Virus genome (UHGV): UHGV-1836508
DNA: 41,013 bases
Direction: 5' to 3' (one strand)
Source: a virus
A program made the translations under genes and the position numbers. Below the pieces are notes generated by a model. That model was not told the DNA's origin, did not search any database, and saw only the letters and a list, made by a program, of their open reading frames with translations. This document shows, one piece after another, positions 25,620 through 40,777 of this stretch; position 1 is the first letter of the stretch; every line of letters begins with the position of its first letter.

Positions 25620-25886
25620 TTACATCACCAGTAACTTCGCTTTGGCTCGACCTAAAGTGGTTAACCCAAGAGTCCGGCGGTGATAGCGATTGTCACTGCG
25701 TTGGCGCGTATGCCCTTTCTCCACCAGCCCCTTTTTTATCAGAGCGCGAATTGAGAACTGGATACTTTGCTTGGTTGTCTTGTACGGCAAAACTTCAAGC
25801 AATTCGTCCAGGTCAAGTAGATGACCTCGCTCATAACCGAGATTGAGCGTTTTGATGATGTCCTTTTGTTTATCGGTTAACGTCAT
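25620..25886 (-). CDS. small winged-helix-like DNA-binding protein (putative regulator)
   Basis: 88 aa, basic C-terminus, helix-turn-wing pattern (…QSIQFSIRALIKKGLVEKGHTRQRSDNRYHRRTLGLT…); SD AAGGA 7 nt before the ATG; last gene of the ParB operon. Confidence 0.45.
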   Translation of the reverse strand: MTLTDKQKDIIKTLNLGYERGHLLDLDELLEVLPYKTTKQSIQFSIRALIKKGLVEKGHTRQRSDNRYHRRTLGLTTLGRAKAKLLVM

Positions 25887-25895
25887 GGCAAATCC

Positions 25896-26786
25896 TTATG
25901 CCGGTAAAGCAATTTCTAACGGTTTATCCAAAGGTTGTTTGTCGAATGCCAGCAGTGGCAGCGTGTCAGGCAGTCGACGGCCAAAGTCAGGGTTTCGGTA
26001 CACACCATACAACGGAGACGTAAAGCTCAGGTTGTGAATGTCCTTGAGCAGCTTCACAATGCTGGCCTCGTCCACCAGACTGTCGGCAATGTCCTGAATC
26101 GTCGTGCCACGATTCCGCCCAGCTTTTGCCAGGGAACTGTTCTTATGGTAGTCCGCCACCAAATCGCGCAGCGCACGGCGACGACGAGACTCGCTCATAG
26201 CGAACAACTCTTTGACGATCGCCTCGTTATCACCCGGGTCGGAGCGGAAATGGCGCTGGAACACACGCAGTGCACTTTCATAGCTCTTCGGTCGCTCAGG
26301 GCGGATGAACTTAAACCCTGCTTTCATGGCGAAGGGATTGTATTTGCTCATCGAGGACTGGATCTCAATGATTGGCCGGTCATGCATCCTGCTAACCAGG
26401 TTAATCATTCTATAAGAGACGCCTACGCCACGATACTGAGTATCCACAACTGAGCGACTGATCACCGCAAAGTTGTTATTCACGTACCGACCCCAGTACT
26501 GGTTAGCCACGGTGGTATTAGTGGTTGGTTTCAACTTAGGAAACATGCGGTGGCGAGGTGCCAACAGTAGTTTCGGGTAAGCCATAACCACGACGCCCAC
26601 CAGACGGTCATCAAGTTCGCAGCGATAGTAAGTTGGCGCGAAAGGTTTGCCGTCTGTTTTGTAGTGAAGCGACTTAAGAGCGTGCCAGTCCTCTACAGTT
26701 CCCTTTGTAACAGTCATTCGCTCCAGAAAGTCCAGATGACGCGGAAACTCTTCAGGGCGGTAGCGTTTAATGATGATGTCCGTCAT
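25896..26786 (-). CDS. GNAT-like acyltransferase-fold protein with C-terminal extension
   Basis: GNAT motif A-like QYRGVGVSYRMI preceded by hydrophobic strands, and motif B-like YNPFAMKAGFKFI; about 130 extra C-terminal residues. ATG overlaps the ATPase stop (ATGA). Confidence 0.5.
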   Translation of the reverse strand: MTDIIIKRYRPEEFPRHLDFLERMTVTKGTVEDWHALKSLHYKTDGKPFAPTYYRCELDDRLVGVVVMAYPKLLLAPRHRMFPKLKPTTNTTVANQYWGRYVNNNFAVISRSVVDTQYRGVGVSYRMINLVSRMHDRPIIEIQSSMSKYNPFAMKAGFKFIRPERPKSYESALRVFQRHFRSDPGDNEAIVKELFAMSESRRRRALRDLVADYHKNSSLAKAGRNRGTTIQDIADSLVDEASIVKLLKDIHNLSFTSPLYGVYRNPDFGRRLPDTLPLLAFDKQPLDKPLEIALPA

Positions 26787-27448
26787 GAATGGACCTCATC
26801 ATGACTACCATTGTGATATTCCACCTTCACGCGTTCTTTGTAGTGCTTGGTGATCTGCATATCAGGGCGCAGCGCGTTCTTCAGGTCTTCGTGAGTCGTC
26901 GCCACCATTACCGTCGCACCAACCTTTCGAGCGGCACGCTGGAGGTTAGACGCCACAACCTGAGCGGTTACACGGTCGAGAACAGCGCCGAACTCGTCAG
27001 CAGCCCATACTTTAGCGCCTGACTCAATCAGTTTGGCAATCTTGAGACGATATTTCTGGCCGTCTGACATTTCAGAAGGCTTGCGAACAAACAGATATGC
27101 ATCGTTCAGACCAGCCATAGATAACAACCCAAGCGCATCACTGGTCGTTTTGCCCAACTGATCGATGACGTTAACCTCATTATCGAAGGTAAAATCATCG
27201 ATGGAGGCTACAGACAGCCCTTCATCCTTCATCTGTCGTTGCAACTCGCGCAGCACAACGGATTTGCCGGAACCGGATTGGCCGGTGATGTACACCACAT
27301 CGCCCTGCTTCACTTCCAGCTCCAGATTGTCGTAAAGCGTCCACTCTTTTTCGTCCAGGCCAAGCCCGAACGACTCAGCGATTTCCAACGTGCGCGTGGT
27401 TTTATTTACGCGTGTCTGAAACGATACGTTGATGATGTATTTGCTCAT
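26783..27448 (-). CDS. stand-alone ABC-type ATPase (nucleotide-binding domain only)
   Basis: Walker A GQSGSGKS, ABC signature MSDGQ, Walker B VWAADEF, H-loop TTHED; no transmembrane segment; ATGA overlaps on both sides. Confidence 0.75.
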   Translation of the reverse strand: MSKYIINVSFQTRVNKTTRTLEIAESFGLGLDEKEWTLYDNLELEVKQGDVVYITGQSGSGKSVVLRELQRQMKDEGLSVASIDDFTFDNEVNVIDQLGKTTSDALGLLSMAGLNDAYLFVRKPSEMSDGQKYRLKIAKLIESGAKVWAADEFGAVLDRVTAQVVASNLQRAARKVGATVMVATTHEDLKNALRPDMQITKHYKERVKVEYHNGSHDEVHS

Positions 27449-28113
27449 GCAGCCATCTCCCCGGAAGAGATCTTCTCCGCATATGCCACAAATGCGTCTA
27501 CCCCGCTTTCTCCCGTCATTTCTTCCATATGGGCAAGCAAATCACCAACAACAATGGCAGAGCCAGCAGGGAGCGTTTTAAAGCCCAATACGTCGACAAC
27601 ACGTACTTCTTCCGCTGCAACTTCACGACTGATCTCGGTGTGTTCATCCTTCTGTCGTTTAGTTTCTTCGCCAAGATCGATAACTAGCGAGTCGGTGTCC
27701 ATTTCTTCTGTCATACTGCCAACGAGAACATTCAACTCACGCTCTTCAAAGCCGAAAACCTCAATATCGTCCAGAACAAGCGACTCAAGCTCTTTCTGTA
27801 GCTTAATTGCATCGTAATCAATGCTGGCAAGTCGGTTATCTTCAAGGCGCTTCGCACGAACCTCGTCATCACTCAGATCATCACGAACAATAACCGGTAC
27901 GCGCTCAAGTCCAGCAAAAATTGCAGCCTCACGGCGGCCGTGGCCAGTAATAATTACGTCGTTCTTATCGACCGTAATTGGCTGGTCAAATCCGCGCTTT
28001 TTAATGGCTGCGGCCAAATCTCTGATCTGCTGTTCATCATGCTTTTTGGCATTCATCTCATAGGGAATAAGATCTGCCGGGTCGCGATATACGATTTCAA
28101 ACTTTTTGGTCAT
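27445..28113 (-). CDS. ParB/Srx-fold (ParB N-terminal domain) protein, paralogue 2
   Basis: …VIITGHGRREAAIFAGLERVPVIV… matches the ParB arginine-rich motif; ATG at 28113 overlaps the upstream stop (ATGA). Confidence 0.75.
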   Translation of the reverse strand: MTKKFEIVYRDPADLIPYEMNAKKHDEQQIRDLAAAIKKRGFDQPITVDKNDVIITGHGRREAAIFAGLERVPVIVRDDLSDDEVRAKRLEDNRLASIDYDAIKLQKELESLVLDDIEVFGFEERELNVLVGSMTEEMDTDSLVIDLGEETKRQKDEHTEISREVAAEEVRVVDVLGFKTLPAGSAIVVGDLLAHMEEMTGESGVDAFVAYAEKISSGEMAA

Positions 28114-28811
28114 TACATACGCTCCTTGTAGTAGTCGACCAGCCACACCAGAGCCTCACCAGCGTTCTCCATTTCATTACCGGTGTTAATAGCCTGCTCT
28201 TTGATGATGTTTTTTATGGTTTCTGCAACACGATCTGACGCATCGAAAGTTACTTTGAAGCGCATGGTCTGATGTTCCGCACCCACACGTTCGGTTTTCT
28301 CTCGTTTGTCGGTATCGACAGGCTCATCACTACCACGAGACAACGCCTCCAGTGCTTCAAGGTCGATTGCCGCCTCTTTTGCTAAAACCATCGAGATTTC
28401 GTCGTCATACGGGGCGATTTCAGACAGTTGATAGTCAAGTTCTGACTGAATTTCTTCAATGAAGCGTTGCAATGCGATTTGGTCGTCTTCACCGTATCGC
28501 TCGTTGTCCACCAGTGACATCTGTTTAGCTACGACATCGCTAATTTTGCCCACAGAAAGCACCGGAACCGTTGAAATTCCTTGCTCAATAGCAGCACGCC
28601 AGCGATGTTCACCGCCGAGGATTTCAAAAAATCCATCTTCAAGTTCACGAGCCAAAATTGGCTTAAAAAAGCCCAATTTTTCGATAGAACCTTTCAGTTT
28701 TTCAAAATTCTGCGCACCAACCGAATTGGTGTTCCAGGTATTCGGGCGAAGGTTGGCAACATCAACCTGCAAAATCGTGATTTTTACATCCATTTTATTG
28801 CTACAATCCAC
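28113..28811 (-). CDS. ParB/Srx-fold (ParB N-terminal domain) protein, paralogue 1
   Basis: …EILGGEHRWRAAIEQGISTVPVL… is close to the canonical ParB GERRxRAA box. Start uncertain (GTG 28811 or ATG 28793), both with weak SD. Confidence 0.7.
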   Translation of the reverse strand: MDCSNKMDVKITILQVDVANLRPNTWNTNSVGAQNFEKLKGSIEKLGFFKPILARELEDGFFEILGGEHRWRAAIEQGISTVPVLSVGKISDVVAKQMSLVDNERYGEDDQIALQRFIEEIQSELDYQLSEIAPYDDEISMVLAKEAAIDLEALEALSRGSDEPVDTDKREKTERVGAEHQTMRFKVTFDASDRVAETIKNIIKEQAINTGNEMENAGEALVWLVDYYKERM

Positions 28812-32635: not shown

Positions 32636-33157
32636 ATGGTTAAAGACATCACCTACGGCATACCGGCTGAAGTCTGGCCGCGAGACTACGAACATGCTGA
32701 AAACATACTTATGTTCTGGCGGAAGAACAACATTCCTGTAAGAGTCACGCTTGAAGACGGTCAGGTGTTTTGCATGTACGTTCAGGGGACAATGCCTTCC
32801 CGCAATAAGCTAGATTTATGCCCGCTTCCATATGATAAAGAAAATCGTATAAGACTCCCACTTGAGCGCATTAGCACAATTGAATCAGGTGTAATCGATG
32901 GCATTGCTCGCGAGTTCAAAGGTAGGCTAACAATACATCCAGACTATGTTGACAATCAGCCATCACGCCGTGACTTTTTTGCGATATGTCGCAAGGCTTA
33001 TCAAAACGACCAATCTATAAGGGTCTACATGACAGACGGTCGTGAAATAGAAGGGGTGTCAAGAGGCGTTGATGCTTGCCAGGTCACTCTTAAATTAGAA
33101 GACGGCAGAAAAATACTTGTTTTCTTCGATTGGGTTGAACGAATCCTTCCATTTTAA
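32636..33157 (+). CDS. hypothetical protein with two tandem Rof/YaeO-like repeats (possible Rho modulator)
   Basis: Internal duplication …VRVTLEDGQVFCMYVQG…RIRLPLERISTIE / …QVTLKLEDGRKILVFFDWVERI resembling the LTLELKDGE…RLDKITSF pattern of Rof; TATAAT at 32602-32607 upstream. Confidence 0.35.
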   Translation: MVKDITYGIPAEVWPRDYEHAENILMFWRKNNIPVRVTLEDGQVFCMYVQGTMPSRNKLDLCPLPYDKENRIRLPLERISTIESGVIDGIAREFKGRLTIHPDYVDNQPSRRDFFAICRKAYQNDQSIRVYMTDGREIEGVSRGVDACQVTLKLEDGRKILVFFDWVERILPF

Positions 33158-33168
33158 ATCTATAAGGG

Positions 33169-33198
33169 TAATAACCGGCTAAGCCCGGTTATTATTTT
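33169..33198 (+). terminator. intrinsic terminator
   Basis: TAATAACCGG-ctaagc-CCGGTTATTA followed by TTTT. Confidence 0.7.
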
Positions 33199-33339
33199 AC
33201 ATGCCATTCATTTAAAACTCTTTCAATGTCACTCTGTATAAATATATAAGGTTAAAAGCCCGAATTGATTATTTATTTAGGGAACACCTTCGACGATCTC
33301 GCTTTTATTTCTAGGACTTTCATCCCTGCAGAAAATTTA

Positions 33340-33367
33340 AAAAAAATACTTGCAATCTTTTTTCACG
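33340..33367 (+). promoter_or_regulatory. sigma70-type promoter (TTGCAA - 16 bp - GATAAT) with upstream A-tract
   Basis: -35 at 33340-33345, -10 at 33362-33367, A-rich block 33321-33338; flanked by inverted repeat ttcgacgatctcgctttt / ctcgtcgaaagcgag. Confidence 0.55.
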
Positions 33368-33452
33368 TATCGATAATTGAACTCGTCGAAAGCGAGCTAG
33401 CTAACGACAGTAAAAAATAAATTCATTTTAATTTTTCGTAAGGATGTCCATC

Positions 33453-34103
33453 ATGACTAACATTATCATTTCTAAAAAGTCCATCATTGAAGCTGCTGCC
33501 ATTGTATCCGACGAGCTGCGCGAAAAAGCAGATCTGGCAACTCAAACATATAACGAACATTATAAAAATGGTACGCACACAAAAGCAGACAAAGCAAATA
33601 TGCAAGCTGCGACCACCAAACTTGCTTACTTCATCAACAACGTCGTAAACGCAGTAGAAGACGAAAAATTGTGCTCTGTTTTCTACTATGCGATCAAAGC
33701 AAGCAAACAAGCGCCAGAAGTATTTTTCCGTGATGCAATGACTAATAGTTATTCTCTGGAAAAACTGGTTTATCTGGTTAAATCCATTAAAGCTGGAAAG
33801 TGTGTTTATTCCGTCGCTGATATGTCCGGATCTCGTGTATTCGCATTAATCGATATGATTAACGACGAGATCGAGACGTTCACAAATGGCGCTGTTTTCG
33901 ATTTAATGAATGAAGCGAAAAAAGCCAACGAAATAAAATTAGACGCAGGATACACTCAAGCCAACCAGCTTATCAATCTTTGCGAACGTCTTGGACTTGT
34001 TGAGAAAGTCAAAGGAATGGGAAGCGCAAAAGCTGGTACGCAGCAATATCGCTTTATTAAAAATGATTTCTATAACTATCTGGCTGATGCTTTCAAAGCG
34101 TAA
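33453..34103 (+). CDS. hypothetical 216-aa protein
   Basis: SD AAGGA before the ATG at 33453; own promoter and terminator; no motif recognised. Confidence 0.55.
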   Translation: MTNIIISKKSIIEAAAIVSDELREKADLATQTYNEHYKNGTHTKADKANMQAATTKLAYFINNVVNAVEDEKLCSVFYYAIKASKQAPEVFFRDAMTNSYSLEKLVYLVKSIKAGKCVYSVADMSGSRVFALIDMINDEIETFTNGAVFDLMNEAKKANEIKLDAGYTQANQLINLCERLGLVEKVKGMGSAKAGTQQYRFIKNDFYNYLADAFKA

Positions 34104-34116
34104 TTAATGGAATCTG

Positions 34117-34137
34117 GCGCCCACTATGGGCGCTTTT
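34117..34137 (+). terminator. hairpin terminator (partial, read-through to next gene likely)
   Basis: GCGCCCA-cta-TGGGCGC followed by TTTT, then SD AAGGAG of the next gene. Confidence 0.6.
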
Positions 34138-34150
34138 AAGGAGCTTAATC

Positions 34151-34381
34151 ATGTTTATTCTTATCGCTGGCGTTAACGTGCGCAATGAATATTTTGTTAA
34201 TCGCATCGCTGGGATCGCTGGTTACGCTGGGCGCTCAGTCGAGTTTATCGATGAAACAACGCGTAAAATTGATTTATTGAGCGACCAGGAGCGAAAAAAA
34301 GCAGACGTGAACGACGCTGATATATTTTTAATGTTAAAAGCGTTTGTAGAAATGGGATTTAAAATCAGTTTACACAAATAA
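34151..34381 (+). CDS. hypothetical 76-aa protein
   Basis: SD AAGGAG 7 nt upstream; followed by a strong terminator. Confidence 0.5.
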   Translation: MFILIAGVNVRNEYFVNRIAGIAGYAGRSVEFIDETTRKIDLLSDQERKKADVNDADIFLMLKAFVEMGFKISLHK

Positions 34382-34387
34382 AATCGA

Positions 34388-34410
34388 GCGCCCATAGTGG
34401 GCGCTTTTTT
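34388..34410 (+). terminator. intrinsic terminator
   Basis: GCGCCCA-tag-TGGGCGC then TTTTTT; exact reverse complement of the hairpin at 34117-34133. Confidence 0.8.
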
Positions 34411-34434
34411 CGTTTCCAATACTCCCACCATAAC

Positions 34435-34456
34435 GCGCCAATGATGGCGCTTTTTT
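34435..34456 (+). terminator. second tandem intrinsic terminator
   Basis: GCGCCA-atga-TGGCGC then TTTTTT; further weaker GC hairpins follow to about 34580. Confidence 0.65.
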
Positions 34457-34758
34457 ATTGTCTTTGACTCACTCCAACAACATAAAAATAAGCGCCAAAA
34501 TAACGCCATAGACGCGCTTTTATATCCTTACCAGTACATACCCATTACTTAGCGCATTAACGCGCTTAAATCGCGTTATATTGCGTTATGGTGTATGGTT
34601 AATCATTGGCTTTTATTCTTGCTATGTGATCCGCGTTTATTTGTCGGCGCAGATCGGCATTTTGTGTTGTTCTGTGTCCGCTCGCATATGATTGCCACGT
34701 TGGGCAACGTGTACGCGCTTACAGTGATTTACCCACGGATTCACATAATCACATAGCG

Positions 34759-34995
34759 AAAGCTATCTGGATGGCCCAGGGGCTGAAACCCCCACCAGCG
34801 ATACCCCAGCGCCGCTACGCAATTTCTGGCGCGATTCCGGGTTTCTCCCGCTCAGTTTTCTACATAAAGGCGACCCCCGCCGTTTCCCGAAAAAATCCTG
34901 GCCGTTTCCCGTCGGCTCATGAATACGTTCCTCGCCGTTTCTGAAAATTTCCCTGCGGCAGCTGGTGGCTATAGAGAAAGGGCCGTTTCTGGCCC
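34759..34995. repeat. iteron array 1: about 6-8 direct repeats of (G)CCGTTTCC(C)-type units
   Basis: gccgtttcccgaaaaaa (34878), gccgtttcccgtcgg (34901), cgccgtttctgaaaat (34933), tttccctgcgg (34950), gccgtttctggccc (34982) plus degenerate copies; non-coding. Confidence 0.75.
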
Positions 34996-35004
34996 TCTTC
35001 TCAG

Positions 35005-35487
35005 TTACACGCCATCAAGGATGTGGATGCGGTTGCTTGCGTATACATTCAGCATAAAGTTAGCGCAAAACAGTTTCCATGTATCAACGCCAGCGGTATA
35101 CGTAATGTTTTTGCATTTAATCGCATTGTTGGCGATCCGCATCCCCTGCGATACTGCTTCATCGTCGGAAAATTTGAACGACGATTGAGTTTTAATCCAG
35201 ACAGAAATCTGCGTAGCGAACTCAATCAGCTTGGACTGGCAGAATCGCCCGGAGCGCACCGGAAAGACGAACGTTCCGAATCCAGAATTTACCACATACG
35301 CTTTCTCAAATACCCGCGAGTAACGACGATTGCCAATGATGTCGCGTGCAATAATGCATTTTTCTTGTGCTGACAGTTCTACCGTCTCATTGTCGCGCCA
35401 TGCACCAAGTACTCGTTTTTCAATGTCAGAGAACGTTACAGCGATATTGCCATGTGCGGGTGCGTTTACAGTAGCGATAAAATTCAT
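35005..35487 (-). CDS. hypothetical 160-aa early-cassette protein A
   Basis: ATG with SD AAGGAAA; own promoter and shared leader element. Confidence 0.6.
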   Translation of the reverse strand: MNFIATVNAPAHGNIAVTFSDIEKRVLGAWRDNETVELSAQEKCIIARDIIGNRRYSRVFEKAYVVNSGFGTFVFPVRSGRFCQSKLIEFATQISVWIKTQSSFKFSDDEAVSQGMRIANNAIKCKNITYTAGVDTWKLFCANFMLNVYASNRIHILDGV

Positions 35488-35508
35488 GATTATTTCCTTA
35501 TCGTAAAT

Positions 35509-35562
35509 AACAAATTGTTTTCTTGTTGGTGTTAATTATCGTTGTACGAATAAGGCGTCAAA
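35509..35562 (-). promoter_or_regulatory. promoter (TTGACG - 15 bp - GATAAT) plus conserved leader element for gene A
   Basis: Minus strand reads TTGACGccttattcgtacaacGATAATtaACACCAACAAGAAAACAATTTGTT, then SD and ATG. Confidence 0.55.
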
Positions 35563-35662
35563 GTGGAAAGTTGCGGTAGCCGGACGAGAACAGGTGGGTT
35601 TGTCGGTTGCCTGGAGGTAAGAGGTTGGTGTTTTTAGCCTGCGGGAAACAGGATGGTCATTT

Positions 35663-35686
35663 AAGGCCACCAGCATTGGTGGCCTT
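35663..35686 (-). terminator. hairpin (terminator or processing site) after gene B; contains a Chi octamer
   Basis: AAGGCCACCA-gcat-TGGTGGCCTT; near-identical copy at 36134-36157. Confidence 0.45.
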
Positions 35687-35691
35687 AGTCT

Positions 35692-35973
35692 TTAGTGGAG
35701 CAGACCGATGTCGATGGTATCCCCTGAATCATCCACACGGATCATCAGCATGGCGAAGGCGTTTAGTGGATAGCTTGCGTGCCATTCAGGGAAGCGGTCA
35801 TCTCGCATGAAGTCGGCAATGTCGTAAACGCATCCCTCAAAGTGGAAGAATCGCGTGCTTACCTGCTCGTCATAATCCACATGATCCATTTCTTGCTGTT
35901 CTGTTTCCGGCAAGTCCAGCCATGATTCAAGGAATACATTTTGTGCTTTAGGGGTAATGGTGAAATCAGTCAT
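35692..35973 (-). CDS. small strongly acidic early-cassette protein B (93 aa; DNA-mimic-like composition)
   Basis: ATG at 35973 with SD GAGGA (the longer track ORF has no SD). About 22 Asp/Glu against about 5 Lys/Arg. Shares a D(I/A)ADFM(R/D) segment with gene F. Confidence 0.55.
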   Translation of the reverse strand: MTDFTITPKAQNVFLESWLDLPETEQQEMDHVDYDEQVSTRFFHFEGCVYDIADFMRDDRFPEWHASYPLNAFAMLMIRVDDSGDTIDIGLLH

Positions 35974-35992
35974 GAGCATATCCTCACTGCGT

Positions 35993-36024
35993 AAACATGT
36001 TGTTTTCTTGTTGGTGTAATTATC
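35993..36024 (-). promoter_or_regulatory. -10 GATAAT plus conserved leader element for gene B
   Basis: Minus strand GCGATAATtACACCAACAAGAAAACAACATGTTTAC. Confidence 0.5.
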
Positions 36025-36133
36025 GCAGTGTAGATAAGGCATAAAAGAAGTTAATACAGGCTGAATACACAAGAAAGGTTCTGGAAGTTGATAGCCAGGT
36101 TTCAAACTAACCTTCGGTTATTAAAAGTCATTT

Positions 36134-36157
36134 AAGACCACCAATGCTGGTGGCCTT
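36134..36157 (-). terminator. hairpin (terminator or processing site), inverted copy of the 35663 element; contains a Chi octamer
   Basis: AAGACCACCA-atgc-TGGTGGCCTT, followed on the minus strand by a U-rich tract. Confidence 0.45.
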
Positions 36158-36308
36158 AATAATTATCGCCCGATTACGCTAAGGATCTTTTCCTCAACTG
36201 ATTTGTTGTTGCGACTAAACTGCCTTGCGTATCTGATGACAGAAGAGGCGTTTTGCTTTCTGACCATCTCGGCTCTTTCCTTCAGGCGTTTCTTGAAATC
36301 GCCCATAT

Positions 36309-36683
36309 TTACCACCAGGCGCAGAAGGTCAGTCTGTTATTGTGAAAGTCGTGGTTCTTAATCAGATCTTCCACAAGCTCTTTCAACTCCCCCACATCAT
36401 GCCAGTAACCTTCATCGTACTCCTGACTGCCGAAGAAAAAACCTTCCCGGGTAGGCAAGTACTCTTCGCAATTACTTTCGTTTATGTGCATCAAATGAGC
36501 CTTCAGAAAACAAATGTCATTCATCGTTAATTCTAAAAGCTCACAATTTTCGACTTCACCTACGTTGCGCTCCATCCACCCAACGAGCGCATTGAACTTA
36601 CGGAAGTAAGCAACCCGCTTTCTGGATGCCTCGTTATTCAGATCGTTTTTAGGCTGTGTCTCGATATAGATATCAAGTCCCAT
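36309..36683 (-). CDS. hypothetical acidic early-cassette protein C (124 aa)
   Basis: ATG at 36683 with SD AAGGAA; track start 36725 is GTG without SD. Confidence 0.55.
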   Translation of the reverse strand: MGLDIYIETQPKNDLNNEASRKRVAYFRKFNALVGWMERNVGEVENCELLELTMNDICFLKAHLMHINESNCEEYLPTREGFFFGSQEYDEGYWHDVGELKELVEDLIKNHDFHNNRLTFCAWW

Positions 36684-36737
36684 GATGGTTTCCTTATTAA
36701 GTTGCTTCAGTGAAATCATTTTCACAAATCAGATAAG

Positions 36738-36760
36738 GCAGAAAACAAATTGTTATCGGG
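36738..36760 (-). promoter_or_regulatory. conserved leader/operator element upstream of gene C, in inverted orientation
   Basis: Plus strand gcagaaaacaaattgttatcggg. Confidence 0.4.
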
Positions 36761-36768
36761 CTTAATAA

Positions 36769-36791
36769 AATGGCGCGGTTTACGCGCCATT
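36769..36791 (-). terminator. intrinsic terminator after gene D
   Basis: AATGGCGCG-gttta-CGCGCCATT then TTATT on the minus strand. Confidence 0.65.
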
Positions 36792-36800
36792 TAAAGAGGA

Positions 36801-37196
36801 TTAAGCGAATACGCTTTCAGGGATTAAGGTGTCGGCAGGAATGCCAGAGGTAATGCGCAGGCCGTACTGACCAATCCAGGTAGTGTTGGTATTCAGGTTG
36901 GAGGCGAATACGGTGTTAACCATATTCATCATGGTTTCAAACACCTCTTCATCAACCTGGCGGAAGTAGTTCTCGATTTTCAGCAGCAGCGGGTCAGTTG
37001 CATCGAGAATGGACTGGTATTGAGTCGCGTACTCGCCGTCGGAGGCATCACCTTTACGCACGATCGTACTGGCCTGGACTTCGGCACCAGTTTCGGTGTT
37101 GTACGTAACAACGGTGATTTTTGCCACATTCTTACCTTCGGCGGTTTCAGAGGCATAGTAAACATCAACTGTCAGTTTTTCGCGTTTAACGGTCAT
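36801..37196 (-). CDS. hypothetical 131-aa early-cassette protein D
   Basis: ATG at 37196 with SD GGAGAG; own sigma70-like promoter. Confidence 0.55.
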   Translation of the reverse strand: MTVKREKLTVDVYYASETAEGKNVAKITVVTYNTETGAEVQASTIVRKGDASDGEYATQYQSILDATDPLLLKIENYFRQVDEEVFETMMNMVNTVFASNLNTNTTWIGQYGLRITSGIPADTLIPESVFA

Positions 37197-37228
37197 TTCA
37201 CTCTCCGTAGTGTTTTGGTTATTTTTAT

Positions 37229-37257
37229 ATTCTATGATCGTAGGTATGTACTTACAA
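37229..37257 (-). promoter_or_regulatory. sigma70-type promoter for gene D (TTGTAA - 17 bp - TAGAAT)
   Basis: Hexamers read on minus strand; -35 lies within a GTAAGTAC motif. Confidence 0.5.
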
Positions 37258-37266
37258 TACAAAAAA

Positions 37267-37289
37267 AGCCCCGTAAGGATGGCGGGGCT
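37267..37289 (-). terminator. intrinsic terminator after gene E
   Basis: Minus strand AGCCCCGCC-atccttac-GGGGCT followed by TTTTTTT. Confidence 0.8.
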
Positions 37290-37323
37290 GTCGTACTGTC
37301 GACTAATTACCACTTGCACATTA

Positions 37324-37635
37324 TCAGGCTATTGCCATCACTGATGCTCTCTGAATTTCTTGCTGGGCCACGCGGTTAACTTCCATCAAAGCCAGTTCGA
37401 GCTGATGTTCCGGCCACATTCTTTGAAATGCCATCCAGCCTTTTCCACGCTGGCGACGAACATTCATTACATAACGAGTAAAGGTGTTTTTATCGAAAGA
37501 CACCGCTGTTTCACGGAACAGACGAATAGAGGTTCCATTGGCAACGATGTCCAGCAAAGTTAATTGAGCAACCAGCGCAGGCTTCTCTTTTCTCTTCTGG
37601 TCTTTGTCCAGACCAAGAACCAATGATTTTTTCAT
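37324..37635 (-). CDS. small basic early-cassette protein E (103 aa; possible nucleic-acid-binding regulator)
   Basis: ATG at 37635 with SD GGAG; Lys/Arg-rich. Confidence 0.5.
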   Translation of the reverse strand: MKKSLVLGLDKDQKRKEKPALVAQLTLLDIVANGTSIRLFRETAVSFDKNTFTRYVMNVRRQRGKGWMAFQRMWPEHQLELALMEVNRVAQQEIQRASVMAIA

Positions 37636-37646
37636 CACAACTCCGT

Positions 37647-37681
37647 AAACAACTTGTTTTCTCAATGGCGTAAATAATACC
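37647..37681 (-). promoter_or_regulatory. -10-like TATTAT plus conserved leader element for gene E
   Basis: Minus strand GGTATTATttacgccattGAGAAAACAAGTTGTTTAC. Confidence 0.45.
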
Positions 37682-37789
37682 AGTAAGAAAACGGCTACAA
37701 AGCATATTGATCAGGCGCATGAGCGATATGCAGGTTCTTCCCTGCGGCTACAGATTAAGTTAAGCCAGCATTGCTGGCTTTGGTTGGGA

Positions 37790-38119
37790 TTACGCGATTA
37801 CCTCAAGAAACTCCTGAACGTCCCAATGCTGGACGAGGTGAAGATAGACCTTAGAAATCACGTCATTTTCGCTATCGCATGTGAAGTAGTACTTCTGGCT
37901 GCGGTTGTATGTGTCCACACAAAATTCGCTCATATCCATAAAGTCAGCATCTTCACCCATGTCGCAAATCATCAAAGCAGGTGCGTCATCACGAGTCATC
38001 AGCTCAAGCACCCACCGCGAATTGATCAGAGTGGAAGACCAACCTTCTAACTCATAAAACTGATCAAACTCTTTTTGAGTTAATTTCTTGATTTGGTTGA
38101 TGTCGATATTTGCAAACAT
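37790..38119 (-). CDS. small strongly acidic early-cassette protein F (109 aa; paralogue-like to B)
   Basis: ATG at 38119 with SD AAGGA; net charge about -15; EDADFMDMSEF segment resembles gene B. Confidence 0.55.
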   Translation of the reverse strand: MFANIDINQIKKLTQKEFDQFYELEGWSSTLINSRWVLELMTRDDAPALMICDMGEDADFMDMSEFCVDTYNRSQKYYFTCDSENDVISKVYLHLVQHWDVQEFLEVIA

Positions 38120-38132
38120 AAAGCAATCCTTA

Positions 38133-38165
38133 AACAACATGTTTTCTTGATGGTGTTATTATCGC
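38133..38165 (-). promoter_or_regulatory. -10 GATAAT plus conserved leader element for gene F
   Basis: Minus strand GCGATAATAACACCATCAAGAAAACATGTTGTTTAAGG. Confidence 0.5.
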
Positions 38166-38479
38166 AATAACGCACAAGCGAAAAAGGATTTTATTCCGGT
38201 GAATGTGGTTTTGGCAGTGAGTTTTCAGGTTCAGTACCGAGAACACTTTTTACATTATTCTGATTTAGTGGCCGAAGGTGGCTGGTGGGCAGAATAATCC
38301 TCTCCCCGAAAACCTACTGAAATCGATTGTGACCCGTTGGCTGTCTGGCACAATTACGCTGTAGCTGGGCATTCAGAGGGAATCCAGCGGTAAGTAAGTT
38401 CGCCTGCACGTGAGCGTCTCTCTTCTTCCCGCACATTACAGGTGGGTAGCCGCAACTCTCCCTCTCGCTATACCGGTAC

Positions 38480-38662
38480 GCCGCCGTTCCTGAACCGGCA
38501 TCGAGCCTTTTCCCGAAATCCACACAGGCAACTCGACCGTTTCCCTGAAAATCCCCAGCCGTTCCCCGAAGGCAATCCAGCCGTTTCTGTAGCGGGATGC
38601 AGCCTTTTCCCTGCGGCGACGCTCCCGTTCCTGAAAATGGACATAGCCTTTTCCCTGGATGG
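38480..38662. repeat. iteron array 2: eight direct repeats of (A)GCCGTTTCCCTGAAAA-type units at 20-23 bp spacing
   Basis: Copies start at about 38484, 38504, 38537, 38557, 38578, 38601, 38624 and 38645; the region has only low-complexity ORFs. Confidence 0.8.
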
Positions 38663-38699
38663 CCCGAAGGCTGACCGAAGGGGTGGAAATAGGCGTTAC

Positions 38700-39690
38700 G
38701 GGGGACGAAAATTATGGCTTGAATTTATACGAAGAAAGTAGCGATACCCCTCCTTCCCTTCCCACTTATACCTCCCACGAATTTTCTCTCTTATGTGGGC
38801 ATAAACCTTCCCTCTGATAACGCTCTATACGGCGAGTATTCCTTTGGGTGAAATGGGTGGTTTGTTCTTTCTACCGGCATATGTGGTTTCGTTCTTCTTG
38901 AGGTGGTTCTTCTCTGTGTTTTCGTCTGGGTTGTTCTCGTCGTTTTGGTGACTGTTCTTCTCCGTGTATGGAGTAATGGCAGGTGGGCGATTGCTTTCGT
39001 TATTGTGTTTGAGTTGTTTGTCTGGAGTGCGTGAAGGGCTTTTGTAGTTATTCGTGTATTGGGTAATGGCGTTTCCCGTGATTGTTATGTTTCGTGTCTT
39101 TTGGGATTGAGAGAAACCTTGCGGTTACAGGCTTCGTTGGGGTTTCAGTGATTCTGGTGTTTCTTCGCTGTTTGGGTAATGGCGTGTCGTGGGTATCGCG
39201 CGTATGGAAGTTTCGAATTGCCTGTGAAAGTTAGGTTGGTTGTCCGGTAGCCTGGGAAGAAGAGGTGGGTCTTTTCGGTAGCCTGCCATAAAGAGGTTGG
39301 TTGTTTTTGGTAATGGCATATGTGTTATTTAGTTGTTTTGTTATACCTGAAAATAAGTTGTTTATATGGTTGTGTAACGCAACGGGAGCGATTTTGAGCG
39401 TGTGTTTTTGTTGGTAGTGTGTTGAGTCGTCTGTGGTGAAATTTGGACGCTGTGGCGCTATCTGCTGCGTGGGATTACGGGTATAAGAAGTGATGTGTGA
39501 AAACGTCAATTTTTTAGACCAAATCGGGTGAAAGCGTTGACATTTCGTTGATCTGTTGTTCAGTTGTTTTCTTATTGGTATAAACAACTATAACCTATTG
39601 ATATTTAAGGATGTGATTGCAGGTATAGAATGGGGGTAGTGGCGATCAACGGATTCTTATAGAAAAGAATCAAATTGTGACCGCCATTAT
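38700..39690. other. ~1-kb GT-rich (plus strand) non-coding tract with dispersed GGTAATGGC repeats
   Basis: No plus-strand ORF of 60 aa or more; minus-strand ORFs are low-complexity with TTG start; GGTAATGGC-like motif at about 38965, 39063, 39175 and 39309. Confidence 0.6.
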
Positions 39691-40477: not shown

Positions 40478-40777
40478 TTACCAGTTCCAGCACTCAAGCC
40501 CTTCAACAACCGGTGCGCCACAATCAAAATGTACAGAGTCAAAGCCTACATCAAGTACCTTCTGAATGTTCGAAATCGCGCCCTCGGATATACCATATCG
40601 ACGCAAGTTATCTTTCCAGTCATCGTCCTGTAACCCGGCGTGAACTATGCAACCGTACTCAATTTGTGAAACCCAATCCAGCTCATTGCTTGCGATCATG
40701 AATCGGCGAGCATCTTCCTCTGATGTATGAGATGAACTGATCAATGCCACCTGGTAGGATTGAGTAATATTTAACAT
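40478..40777 (-). CDS. hypothetical 99-aa acidic protein
   Basis: ORF overlapping the upstream gene stop; no motif recognised. Confidence 0.5.
   Translation of the reverse strand: MLNITQSYQVALISSSHTSEEDARRFMIASNELDWVSQIEYGCIVHAGLQDDDWKDNLRRYGISEGAISNIQKVLDVGFDSVHFDCGAPVVEGLECWNW

Follow-up and report, generated by a model that had tools for sequence, protein, structure and literature searches.

Several described systems come close to the locus reported here, which lies at positions 33,199 to 34,410 of UHGV virus genome UHGV-1836508, a stretch of 41,013 nucleotides that was analyzed as a whole (the window). Among DNA-binding proteins, the closest are the winged-helix proteins (MarR/PadR, TubR, RTP, and Orc1/Cdc6) and the Rep_3/RepA/pi-type initiators, which have two tandem winged helices. 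The iteron arrays of plasmids (P1 incC/incA and RepFIB) and centromeres (tubC and parC) are made of direct repeats. Lambdoid phages carry morons, defined by Hendrix and colleagues, which are variable accessory genes between conserved genes; classical morons are transcribed autonomously in lysogens. Small inversions of hairpin loops are well known in the perfectly palindromic hairpins of chloroplast spacers. In Salmonella, FljA represses translation of fliC mRNA. Finally, type II toxin-antitoxin modules include the KacT-antitoxin and HicAB systems of Escherichia phage Cyrano, a close relative of the window.

The locus encodes a protein of 216 amino acids (gpA) and a protein of 76 amino acids (gpB). 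Upstream is a gene for a FljA-like protein, and two copies of a terminator-like hairpin enclose the slot in which the gpB gene lies. We give about an even chance to the reading that the gpA locus combines a repressed, probably DNA-binding early or induced factor with an exchangeable accessory cassette.

The locus resembles each of the described systems in part. gpA shares with winged-helix proteins its predicted topology, a local superposition, and a conserved helix at the recognition position. However, it has no detectable sequence similarity to Pfam, NCBIfam, or PDB entries, its N-terminal 115 residues are unmatched, and no structural match has an E value below 0.01. It is predicted to have one winged helix, rather than the tandem pair of the Rep-type initiators, and it has no Rep Pfam match. 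Nearby GCCGTTTCCCG arrays are direct repeats in two clusters flanking genes, as in plasmid iteron arrays and centromeres. Unlike plasmid iterons, they are not beside the RepA gene of the element, and their connection to gpA is conjecture. The slot gene is like a moron in being present or absent between conserved neighbors, in being accompanied by a terminator copy, and in differing among close relatives, but it lacks its own promoter and is silent in the prophage. The hairpins recall the chloroplast loop inversions: the stem is identical, the 3-nucleotide (nt) loop is reverse-complemented, and the change recurs across lineages and in both copies. Here, however, the setting is a bacterial intrinsic terminator, present in duplicate at the borders of a gene slot, and template switching or conversion between the copies are candidate mechanisms. 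With type II toxin-antitoxin modules the locus shares a two-gene, same-strand layout with a private promoter, but its partner gene is not conserved, a terminator lies between the genes, and there is neither expression in the lysogen nor homology.

Results

gpA is a core gene of SSU5-type phage-plasmids

By sequence comparison, the window is an SSU5-type phage-plasmid. Its region from 33200 to 34500 is 99.2% identical to Cyrano, which is the phage-plasmid pLF82 of E. coli LF82, and 81 to 91% identical to other SSU5-type phage-plasmids from E. coli, Klebsiella, and Salmonella. A first-pass annotation, made from the letters of the window alone, had claimed open reading frames of 216 and 76 amino acids, and both are present on the plus strand (Table 1). 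They correspond to CYRAN_113 and CYRAN_112 of Cyrano, both annotated as hypothetical, and the counterpart of gpA in phage SSU5 is SSU5_120. The list of open reading frames has a 219-amino-acid version of gpA that starts at 33444, but all homologues begin at the MTN/MSN codon at 33453.

A search of 5.8 billion proteins returned 102 close homologues of gpA, all of them hypothetical and all on enterobacterial contigs of about 105 to 112 kb. A profile search of 1.84 billion cluster representatives matched only 23 proteins. gpA is encoded on 815 PLSDB plasmids, including 62 from Yersinia, and 791 of the 815 are typed as nonmobilizable. The family is narrow, and gpA is a core gene of SSU5/pHCM2/pMT1-type phage-plasmids. 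Its homologue on Yersinia pestis pMT1 is 87% identical and has the same neighbors. Homologues in two distant relatives, from Xenorhabdus hominickii and Morganella psychrotolerans, are 33 to 35% identical to the window protein. Differences between gpA and its SSU5 homologue number 24, 12, and 83 at the three codon positions, and because of this distribution we conclude that gpA is under purifying selection. For comparisons of the whole locus we used 80 loci from viral contigs, five from phage records, and two from distant genomic relatives; 81 of these were usable for the architecture of the slot.

In Y. pestis A1122, the whole locus is intact on pMT1 (NC_017169.1, 12091 to 12741). Its gene content there is ParB-N twice, a helicase, the fljA-like gene, gpA, a slot gene of 75 amino acids, and a gene for a protein of 160 amino acids.

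gpA has a predicted winged helix with a conserved recognition-position helix

The first-pass annotation recognized no motif in either protein and proposed homology searches and structure prediction as a check. By sequence, neither protein matches a family of known function, but the predicted structure of gpA shows a winged helix. gpA had no match in Pfam, NCBIfam, or PADLOC; PHROGs gave only phrog_1513, to which that database assigns no function, and the gpA profile had zero matches among PDB sequences at E values up to 10. An AlphaFold2 model of gpA (pLDDT of 82.5) has an N-terminal helical domain (residues 8 to 114), made of a long helical hairpin (8 to 38 and 44 to 68) and three more helices, and a C-terminal winged helix (126 to 213). 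Between residues 126 and 201 the order of elements is helix-strand-helix-helix-strand-strand (helices 126 to 137, 145 to 158, and 168 to 179; strands 142 to 144, 183 to 185, and 198 to 201; pLDDT of 78 to 90), which is the winged-helix topology with a helix at the recognition position.

Local Foldseek matches to the model were all winged helices: 7nyw_D (from the MukBEF-MatP-DNA head module), RTP (1f4k), TubR (6aht), PadR, and Orc1/Cdc6. These superpositions have target-normalized TM-scores of 0.5 to 0.6 and root mean square deviations of 3 to 4 Å over about 90 columns. A search of BFVD, a library of viral structures, gave the same generic winged-helix picture. The most conserved stretch of gpA, in homologues down to 22% identity, is YTQANQLINLCERLG, which is the helix at the recognition-helix position, and T168, Q169, and G181 are invariant over the same range. 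On the strength of this model, gpA may be a site-specific DNA-binding regulator or organizer. It represents a new family that lacks characterized relatives, within a known kind of protein, the winged-helix proteins of mobile elements.

The DNA upstream of gpA is better conserved than the flanking genes

The first-pass annotation had proposed a sigma-70-type promoter, TTGCAA-16-GATAAT, at 33340 to 33367. The promoter exists, but it lies 10 bp to the right of that position (Table 1). An A-run before CTTG is present in all lineages, and the CTTG of the -35 hexamer and the -10 hexamer (GATAAT, CATAAT, or TATTAT) are at the same position in all of them. We accept this promoter as real because the A-tract, the CTTG, and the -10 hexamer are kept in five lineages whose gpA proteins are 33 to 100% identical. 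The inverted repeat that was said to flank it did not hold up. It is made up of two separate 8-mers, TTCGACGA at 33289, with its complement at 33383, and CTCGCTTT at 33298, with its complement at 33389. Because the two follow each other in the same direction on both sides, they do not add up to one palindrome. The window has about five exact 8-nt inverted repeats per kb at distances of up to 150 bp, and only TTCGA/TCGAA of this one is kept in relatives. A sigma-28 promoter was considered and rejected: the -10 region ATCGATAA is similar to GCCGATAA, but nothing matches the -35 element, and distant relatives have TATTAT. No LexA box was seen at the gpA promoter when the sequence was read by eye.

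Farther upstream, the block ATATATAAGG is identical in the five lineages, which are the elements of E. coli, Salmonella, a group at 62% identity, Xenorhabdus, and Morganella. It is followed by a direct repeat, TTATTT.AGG.AC, that begins at 33273 (site 1) and at 33305 (site 2), with each copy inside a conserved block. The block around site 1, ATTTATT(T/G)AGG(G/C)AACACCTT, is essentially invariant in all five lineages, and the block at site 2, TT(A/T)TTTCTA(G/A)GA(C/G)TT, is invariant in them. Site 1 has no second copy in the window or in a further 49 kb of Cyrano; site 2 is kept in every lineage and is the sole match to its pattern in the window. A dispersed global operator of the P1 C1 type was dropped as an explanation for these blocks, which are absent elsewhere in the window and in the 49 kb of Cyrano. 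Because they are found nowhere else in that DNA, sites 1 and 2 would serve the gpA promoter only, and their positions fit the binding of an activator or a repressor there. Across 33242 to 33320, the blocks ATATATAAGG, TTATTTAGGGAACACCTT, and TTATTTCTAGGACTT are invariant in lineages whose flanking proteins are only about 33% identical. Therefore, the intergenic DNA is better conserved than the genes.

A related motif, (A/C)TATAAGG, is also present at 33015, within the fljA-like gene, and at 33160. TATAAGG is not found in 49 kb of Cyrano outside the window, where mononucleotide shuffles predict about eight copies.

gpA and gpB are silent in the LF82 lysogen

Expression was read from a published transcriptome of LF82 (PMC9928086, S1 Table), in which values are log2(fpkm + 5), where fpkm is fragments per kilobase per million, and the floor is 2.32. 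After overnight growth in LB, the values were 2.78 and 2.32 for gpA and 2.32 and 2.32 for gpB (PMC9928086, S1 Table). Normalized counts in LB were 5.9 for gpA and 5.0 for gpB, against a Cyrano median of 9.8. Both genes were near 3 in samples B1 and B6, which we took to be bacteria without macrophages, and they reached about 5.6 (gpA) and 4.6 (gpB) only at 6 h inside macrophages (PMC9928086). The fljA-like gene was at 7 to 8 in the same samples. Since it is expressed at that level in samples where gpA is near the floor, its terminator must work and the gpA promoter must be off. The signal falls more than 30-fold across this terminator, from about 8 log2 units for CYRAN_114 to about 3 for CYRAN_113. 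The terminator itself folds as RNA at -13.0 kcal/mol and is invariant among relatives. The earlier view of the locus as a separately promoted and terminated unit is supported. An unknown early function, which the first-pass annotation had offered as an alternative, fits as well, because in LB the LF82 lysogen shows both genes at the detection floor.

Outside the window, CYRAN_98, a gene for a LexA-like S24 peptidase, rises from 7.4 to 12.3 log2 units in the same table, by far the strongest expression of any regulator-type Cyrano gene in the lysogen. CYRAN_98 may be the true master repressor, rather than CYRAN_45, which is annotated as a putative repressor.

A proposed mechanism and an alternative without DNA binding

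In the reading that we favor, gpA would be a regulated, lysogen-silent protein. Because its promoter is off in the lysogen, it would belong to a postinfection or induction program rather than to prophage maintenance. Transcription would begin from the promoter in Table 1, under the control of the two upstream sites, and would produce a dimeric winged-helix DNA-binding protein. The targets of this protein would be among the conserved repeats nearby, either the sites at its own promoter or the downstream GCCGTTTCCCG arrays. Hairpin 1, which has a tail of four U's and abuts the next Shine-Dalgarno sequence, would attenuate transcription, so that a fraction reads into the slot gene, here gpB. Hairpin 2 and a third terminator would stop transcription ahead of the convergent leftward operon. 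The slot between the hairpin copies would turn over by recombination, and repeated flips of the 3-nt loop would produce the "mirror image" hairpins described below. In this scheme, the DNA binding, targets, and timing of gpA and the leakiness of hairpin 1 are inferred; what is shown is the anatomy of the locus, its conservation, the varying slot, the lack of expression in the lysogen, and the predicted fold.

Several points weigh against this reading. The promoter scores just 9 out of 12, and promoter-like sites are not enriched in the region (10 found and 13.6 expected). The transcriptome is from one strain. Silence in LB means that the genes are off there and says nothing about when they turn on, and the rise inside macrophages is small and is shared by several more of the silent Cyrano genes. 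Nor are the 81 loci independent of one another phylogenetically. Foldseek searches of PDB and BFVD gave no significant structural match to the whole of gpA (the best E value was 0.03). In addition, the winged-helix domain is mildly acidic (pI of 5.0), and winged helices can also mediate protein-protein contacts.

The acidity of this C-terminal domain also favors an alternative that we consider unlikely, in which gpA does not bind DNA. Its winged helix and helical hairpin would serve protein contacts, and gpA would be an early factor that binds a host or phage protein. The roles considered were host takeover, antidefense, and replication accessory. Among the best local structural matches are winged helices that do not bind DNA, for example, in MukBEF chains. 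The silence of gpA in the lysogen and its position beside a block of small acidic genes of early type, including one for a DUF5983 protein, would suit such a factor. However, the most conserved segment of gpA is exactly the helix in the recognition-helix position. Also, conservation is higher in the noncoding repeats around gpA than in the proteins, and this would require a conserved DNA-binding protein.

Conserved direct-repeat arrays lie near gpA

Array 1 consists of GCCGTTTC(C/T)(C/T)G direct repeats. It is about 500 bp 3' of the gpA unit, at the end of a conserved noncoding stretch between convergent genes, and a pattern search found three matches when 0.12 was expected. Together with array 2, it brackets the leftward operon at 35005 to 38140. 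Both arrays are present in every lineage examined, which covers all SSU5-type loci, Xenorhabdus, and Morganella. The possibility that they are RepA iterons was dropped, with no GCCGTTTC repeats near the repA gene of the element. Candidate roles for the arrays are a second origin, a centromere, silencing, or a motif that acts in minus-strand RNA. When viral contigs were scanned for the paired repeats, 66/79 of those returned were SSU5-type contigs, and the rest were a few unrelated ones, probably there by chance; the scan says nothing on whether the repeats occur without gpA. Our literature search found nothing on the gpA gene, on fljA in phage-plasmids, or on these repeats.

gpA might bind the GCCGTTTCCCGAAAAT-type repeats of both arrays, either to initiate replication at a second origin (a lytic one, for example) or to bring about looping or silencing. 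We regard this as unlikely, although several observations are consistent with it. The predicted winged helix is of a kind found in iteron-binding initiators and in TubR-type centromere binders. Direct repeats lie near the gene, as they do for Rep-type initiators (34879 to 34989 and 38483 to 38660), and binding by gpA is putative. Array 1 starts 500 bp downstream, and the spacing of six repeats in array 2 is exactly 22 bp. The arrays and gpA have been retained together in all lineages examined, including Xenorhabdus and Morganella, and the repeat core and the recognition-position helix of gpA are both nearly invariant. No such repeats surround the RepA gene, which lies 34 kb away. However, the link between gpA and the arrays is by inference only. 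Other candidate binders are the ParA/MinD-like CYRAN_99 and its neighbors, two ParB-N proteins, and the DNA-binding CYRAN_123. Rep_3/RepA-type proteins have two winged helices; gpA has a single one and shows no sequence similarity to them. The 22-bp phasing is lost in distant relatives, and the repeats could act as RNA on the minus strand. Finally, gpA is silent in the lysogen and so is no plasmid maintenance factor there.

A more specific version seems distinctly unlikely to us. gpA would be the dedicated binder of a hitherto undescribed second repeat system of SSU5/pHCM2/pMT1-type phage-plasmids, made up of the two arrays with their partial 22-bp phasing, and, once switched on after infection or induction, would fire a lytic origin there or loop and reprogram the leftward operon. 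If this were true, gpA would found a new winged-helix family of origin or operon organizers, carried by about 800 sequenced enterobacterial plasmids that include Y. pestis pMT1.

Two other features of the noncoding DNA around the arrays were noted. The conserved stretch at 34405 to 34870, between the convergent genes, contains the third terminator, several ATAACGC(G) motifs, with some in each orientation, the sequence GTACATACCCATTAC, which is invariant, and DnaA-box-like sequences near 34720 to 34760; it has no Rfam match. To the right of array 2, the noncoding DNA at 38700 to 39350 is highly repetitive, with four copies of GGTAATGGC and several GGTT.TTCTTCT-like repeats. The annotated open reading frame CYRAN_104 (38306 to 38710, minus strand) overlies array 2 and may be spurious.

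The constant neighbor of gpA is a fljA-like gene

The fljA-like gene (32636 to 33157, plus strand) encodes a protein that matches the Pfam family Flag1_repress (E = 1e-80) and has a weak Hfq/LSM-like C terminus. It is directly 5' of gpA in 82 of the 87 loci. The Xenorhabdus and Morganella elements also have it, above the Pfam cutoff and upstream of gpA. The order of the fljA-like gene, the conserved intergenic region, and gpA is kept in these two elements, which have no small gene after gpA. Judged by gene order, the constant neighbor of gpA is the fljA-like gene, not gpB. The FljA-like protein could repress host flagellin, which would be a lysogenic conversion, or it could control a phage mRNA.

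In another reading, the fljA-like gene and gpA would be the real pair, with the FljA-like RNA-binding protein repressing translation of gpA mRNA through its conserved 5' leader. We find this improbable. The Pfam-confirmed gene order and the conservation of the gpA leader (CATCGAAAGCGAAC...AACGA...) across lineages are in its favor, as is the pattern in the lysogen, where the fljA-like gene is on and gpA is off. However, the gpA signal is low at the RNA level, which indicates transcriptional silence rather than translational control, and conserved synteny alone is no proof of regulation. A comparison of the gpA leader with the E. coli fliC leader found only short, ordinary motifs around the Shine-Dalgarno sequence, and the similarity was dropped as trivial.

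gpB occupies an exchangeable slot between two terminator hairpins

The first-pass annotation had described two hairpins, one between the genes and one after them, and both are present far beyond chance. There are two copies of GCGCCCA-NNN-TGGGCGC in the window, where 0.00 are expected, and none in another 49 kb of Cyrano. The idea of a dispersed hairpin was therefore dropped; the element is confined to the slot. Hairpin 1 folds as RNA at -14.1 kcal/mol and hairpin 2 at -15.5 kcal/mol. Hairpin 2 and the third terminator have the G+C-rich stem-loop and U-run that define an intrinsic terminator, and the fall in RNA-seq signal at the fljA-like terminator shows that sites of this sort function in the element. 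Hairpin 1 has only UUUU and is probably a leaky terminator or an attenuator, as judged from its sequence.

The two hairpins were said to be exact reverse complements, and they do form an 18-nt perfect inverted match. However, this is no special mirror design. The stem GCGCCCA/TGGGCGC is a perfect palindrome and reads the same on both strands, so that the two hairpins are one element in which only the 3-nt loop is inverted. Loop pairs are CTA/CTA in 42 loci, TAG/CTA in 9, CTA/TAG in 9, and TCA/TGA in 1. The loop is mostly CTA; TAG is the loop of the first copy in 10 loci and of the last in 9, and the pair is a mirror image in 19 of the 72 two-hairpin loci. Three substitutions would be needed to turn CTA into TAG, and it is more parsimonious to suppose that the loop has been inverted repeatedly or that one copy has converted the other. 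The mirror image reflects a quirk of palindromic hairpins rather than the design of the module.

What lies between the hairpins varies. In the following, H is the hairpin, S is an unrelated gene for a coiled-coil-like protein of 67 amino acids, B is gpB, and B' is a gpB paralogue that is 47 to 53% identical. Among the 81 loci, the architectures are H-S-H (26 loci), H-B-H (17), H-S-B-H (16), H alone (7), H-S-B'-H (3), H-B'-H (3), H-B'-H-B-H (2), and a few others. Hairpin 1 follows gpA in nearly all of these loci, and gpB accompanies gpA in about 36. The Xenorhabdus and Morganella relatives have no small gene after gpA. The hairpin copies therefore always enclose a slot whose content turns over, with gpB as one of several occupants.

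gpB (CYRAN_112) is limited to the same elements as gpA. It had no match in Pfam, NCBIfam, or PADLOC, and its PHROGs family, phrog_1585, has no assigned function. Its predicted structure is of low confidence (pLDDT of 68) and ferredoxin-like (strand-helix-strand-strand-helix-helix-strand), and Foldseek returned only generic ferredoxin-like matches (PII-like, Cas2, and ACT). Differences by codon position indicate weaker constraint than on gpA. Within the gene, at 34204 to 34230, is a 9-nt tandem repeat, ATCGCTGGG/ATCGCTGGT/TACGCTGGG, which encodes IAG-IAG-YAG. Homologues with three, two, or one of these units have 76, 73, or 70 amino acids, and this points to length variation of the slippage type. 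The 47 nt between gpA and gpB hold just hairpin 1, four T's, and the gpB Shine-Dalgarno sequence, and so gpB has no promoter of its own. This contradicts the claim that the two genes are individually regulated.

The first-pass annotation had suggested that gpA and gpB are a toxin/immunity or exclusion pair. The layout is that of a pair, with a larger and then a small gene on the same strand and a private promoter and terminators. Phage-plasmids do carry toxin-antitoxin systems, and Cyrano has KacT, RelE-like, and HicAB. However, the pairing is not obligate: gpA stands without a small gene in 7 of the 81 loci and in the Xenorhabdus and Morganella elements, and with only the unrelated 67-amino-acid gene in 26. 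A terminator hairpin separates the genes. Constitutive expression in carrier cells, as for toxin-antitoxin genes, is not seen: gpA and gpB are at or near the floor, and recognized Cyrano toxin-antitoxin genes are 9- to 60-fold above background in the same data (PMC9928086). PADLOC, Pfam, and NCBIfam gave no homology of either protein to toxin, antitoxin, or defense families. Features of superinfection exclusion are lacking too, because gpA is silent in the lysogen, and its AlphaFold2 model is all soluble with no predicted membrane segment. This silence argues against addiction, immunity, or exclusion, which would have to act in exactly these cells. With the co-occurrence data having largely refuted a toxin/immunity pair, it is hardly credible that gpA and gpB act from the resident phage-plasmid as a toxin/immunity, toxin-antitoxin, or superinfection exclusion pair.

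Other features of the window

The features of the locus and the arrays are collected in Table 1. Elsewhere, the window has structural genes, a ParB-N/ABC-type ATPase cluster, a UvsW-like helicase gene, a lipoprotein gene, the fljA-like gene, and small leftward genes. The plasmid replication gene repA (CYRAN_63) and parA (CYRAN_28) are at least 34 kb from the locus. Rfam and tRNA scans of the window gave no matches.

Table 1. Positions of the gpA locus features and nearby direct-repeat arrays in the window
Feature	Positions	Strand	Description
Terminator of the fljA-like gene	33168..33199	+	Intrinsic terminator, stem GUAAUAACCGG/CCGGUUAUUAU and U-run; left border of the unit
Invariant noncoding block ATATATAAGG	33242..33251	+	Putative regulatory site
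Upstream site 1, TTATTTAGGGAAC	33273..33285	+	First of two direct repeats; center about 106 bp 5' of the predicted start
Upstream site 2, TTATTTCTAGGAC	33305..33317	+	32 bp after site 1; center about 74 bp 5' of the predicted start
A-tract	33339..33346	+	UP-element-like; directly 5' of the -35 hexamer
Promoter TTGCAA-16-GATAAT	33350..33377	+	Sigma-70 type; predicted start about 33384-33386
gpA, 216 amino acids	33453..34103	+	CYRAN_113 = SSU5_120 = phrog_1513; Shine-Dalgarno AAGGA at 33441-33445
Hairpin 1, GCGCCCA-CTA-TGGGCGC	34117..34133	+	Followed by UUUU and the gpB Shine-Dalgarno sequence; left border of the slot
gpB, 76 amino acids	34151..34381	+	CYRAN_112, phrog_1585; exchangeable accessory gene; Shine-Dalgarno AAGGAG at 34138-34143
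Hairpin 2, GCGCCCA-TAG-TGGGCGC and UUUUUU	34388..34410	+	Stem-loop at 34388-34404; strong intrinsic terminator; right border of the slot
Third terminator, GCGCCA-ATGA-TGGCGC and UUUUUU	34435..34456	+	Back-up terminator; -10.7 kcal/mol; invariant in close relatives
Array 1, GCCGTTTC(C/T)(C/T)G direct repeats	34879..34992	+	Candidate binding sites; 4 copies, with 22-bp spacing of the first two
Array 2, GCCGTTTCCCGAAAAT-like direct repeats	38483..38660	Same orientation as array 1	About 8 copies, six exactly 22 bp apart

The cluster at 25620 to 28793 (minus strand) consists of two genes with a ParB N-terminal domain, a small DNA-binding gene, and two ABC-type ATPase genes, one of which carries a fusion to an acetyltransferase-like domain. 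The cluster is unlike a classical partition operon in appearance, and the lysogen does not express it. Y. pestis pMT1 has retained it as well. At 40478 to 40777 (minus strand) is a gene for a 99-amino-acid protein with a DUF5983 C-terminal domain (E = 5e-12), amid small acidic leftward genes without a family match. This leftward run looks like an early or anti-host gene block.

Discussion

At this stage, the finding amounts to an ordinary uncharacterized phage gene with an accessory cassette, and there is no reason to retain the toxin/immunity idea. The conserved repeats that surround the gpA locus are a more promising lead than the locus itself.

Clinical E. coli, Klebsiella, Salmonella, and Enterobacter commonly carry SSU5-type phage-plasmids, and the backbone of Y. 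pestis pMT1 is also of this type. The control of lysis and lysogeny and of replication in these elements is almost unstudied. The locus offers a conserved, lysogen-silent protein without a characterized relative that, judged from its predicted fold, probably binds DNA. It also offers regulatory DNA that is better conserved than the proteins and a defined slot for the exchange of small genes between terminator copies. If gpA is a switch or an origin factor, then it would provide a handle on the induction and copy number control of these elements.

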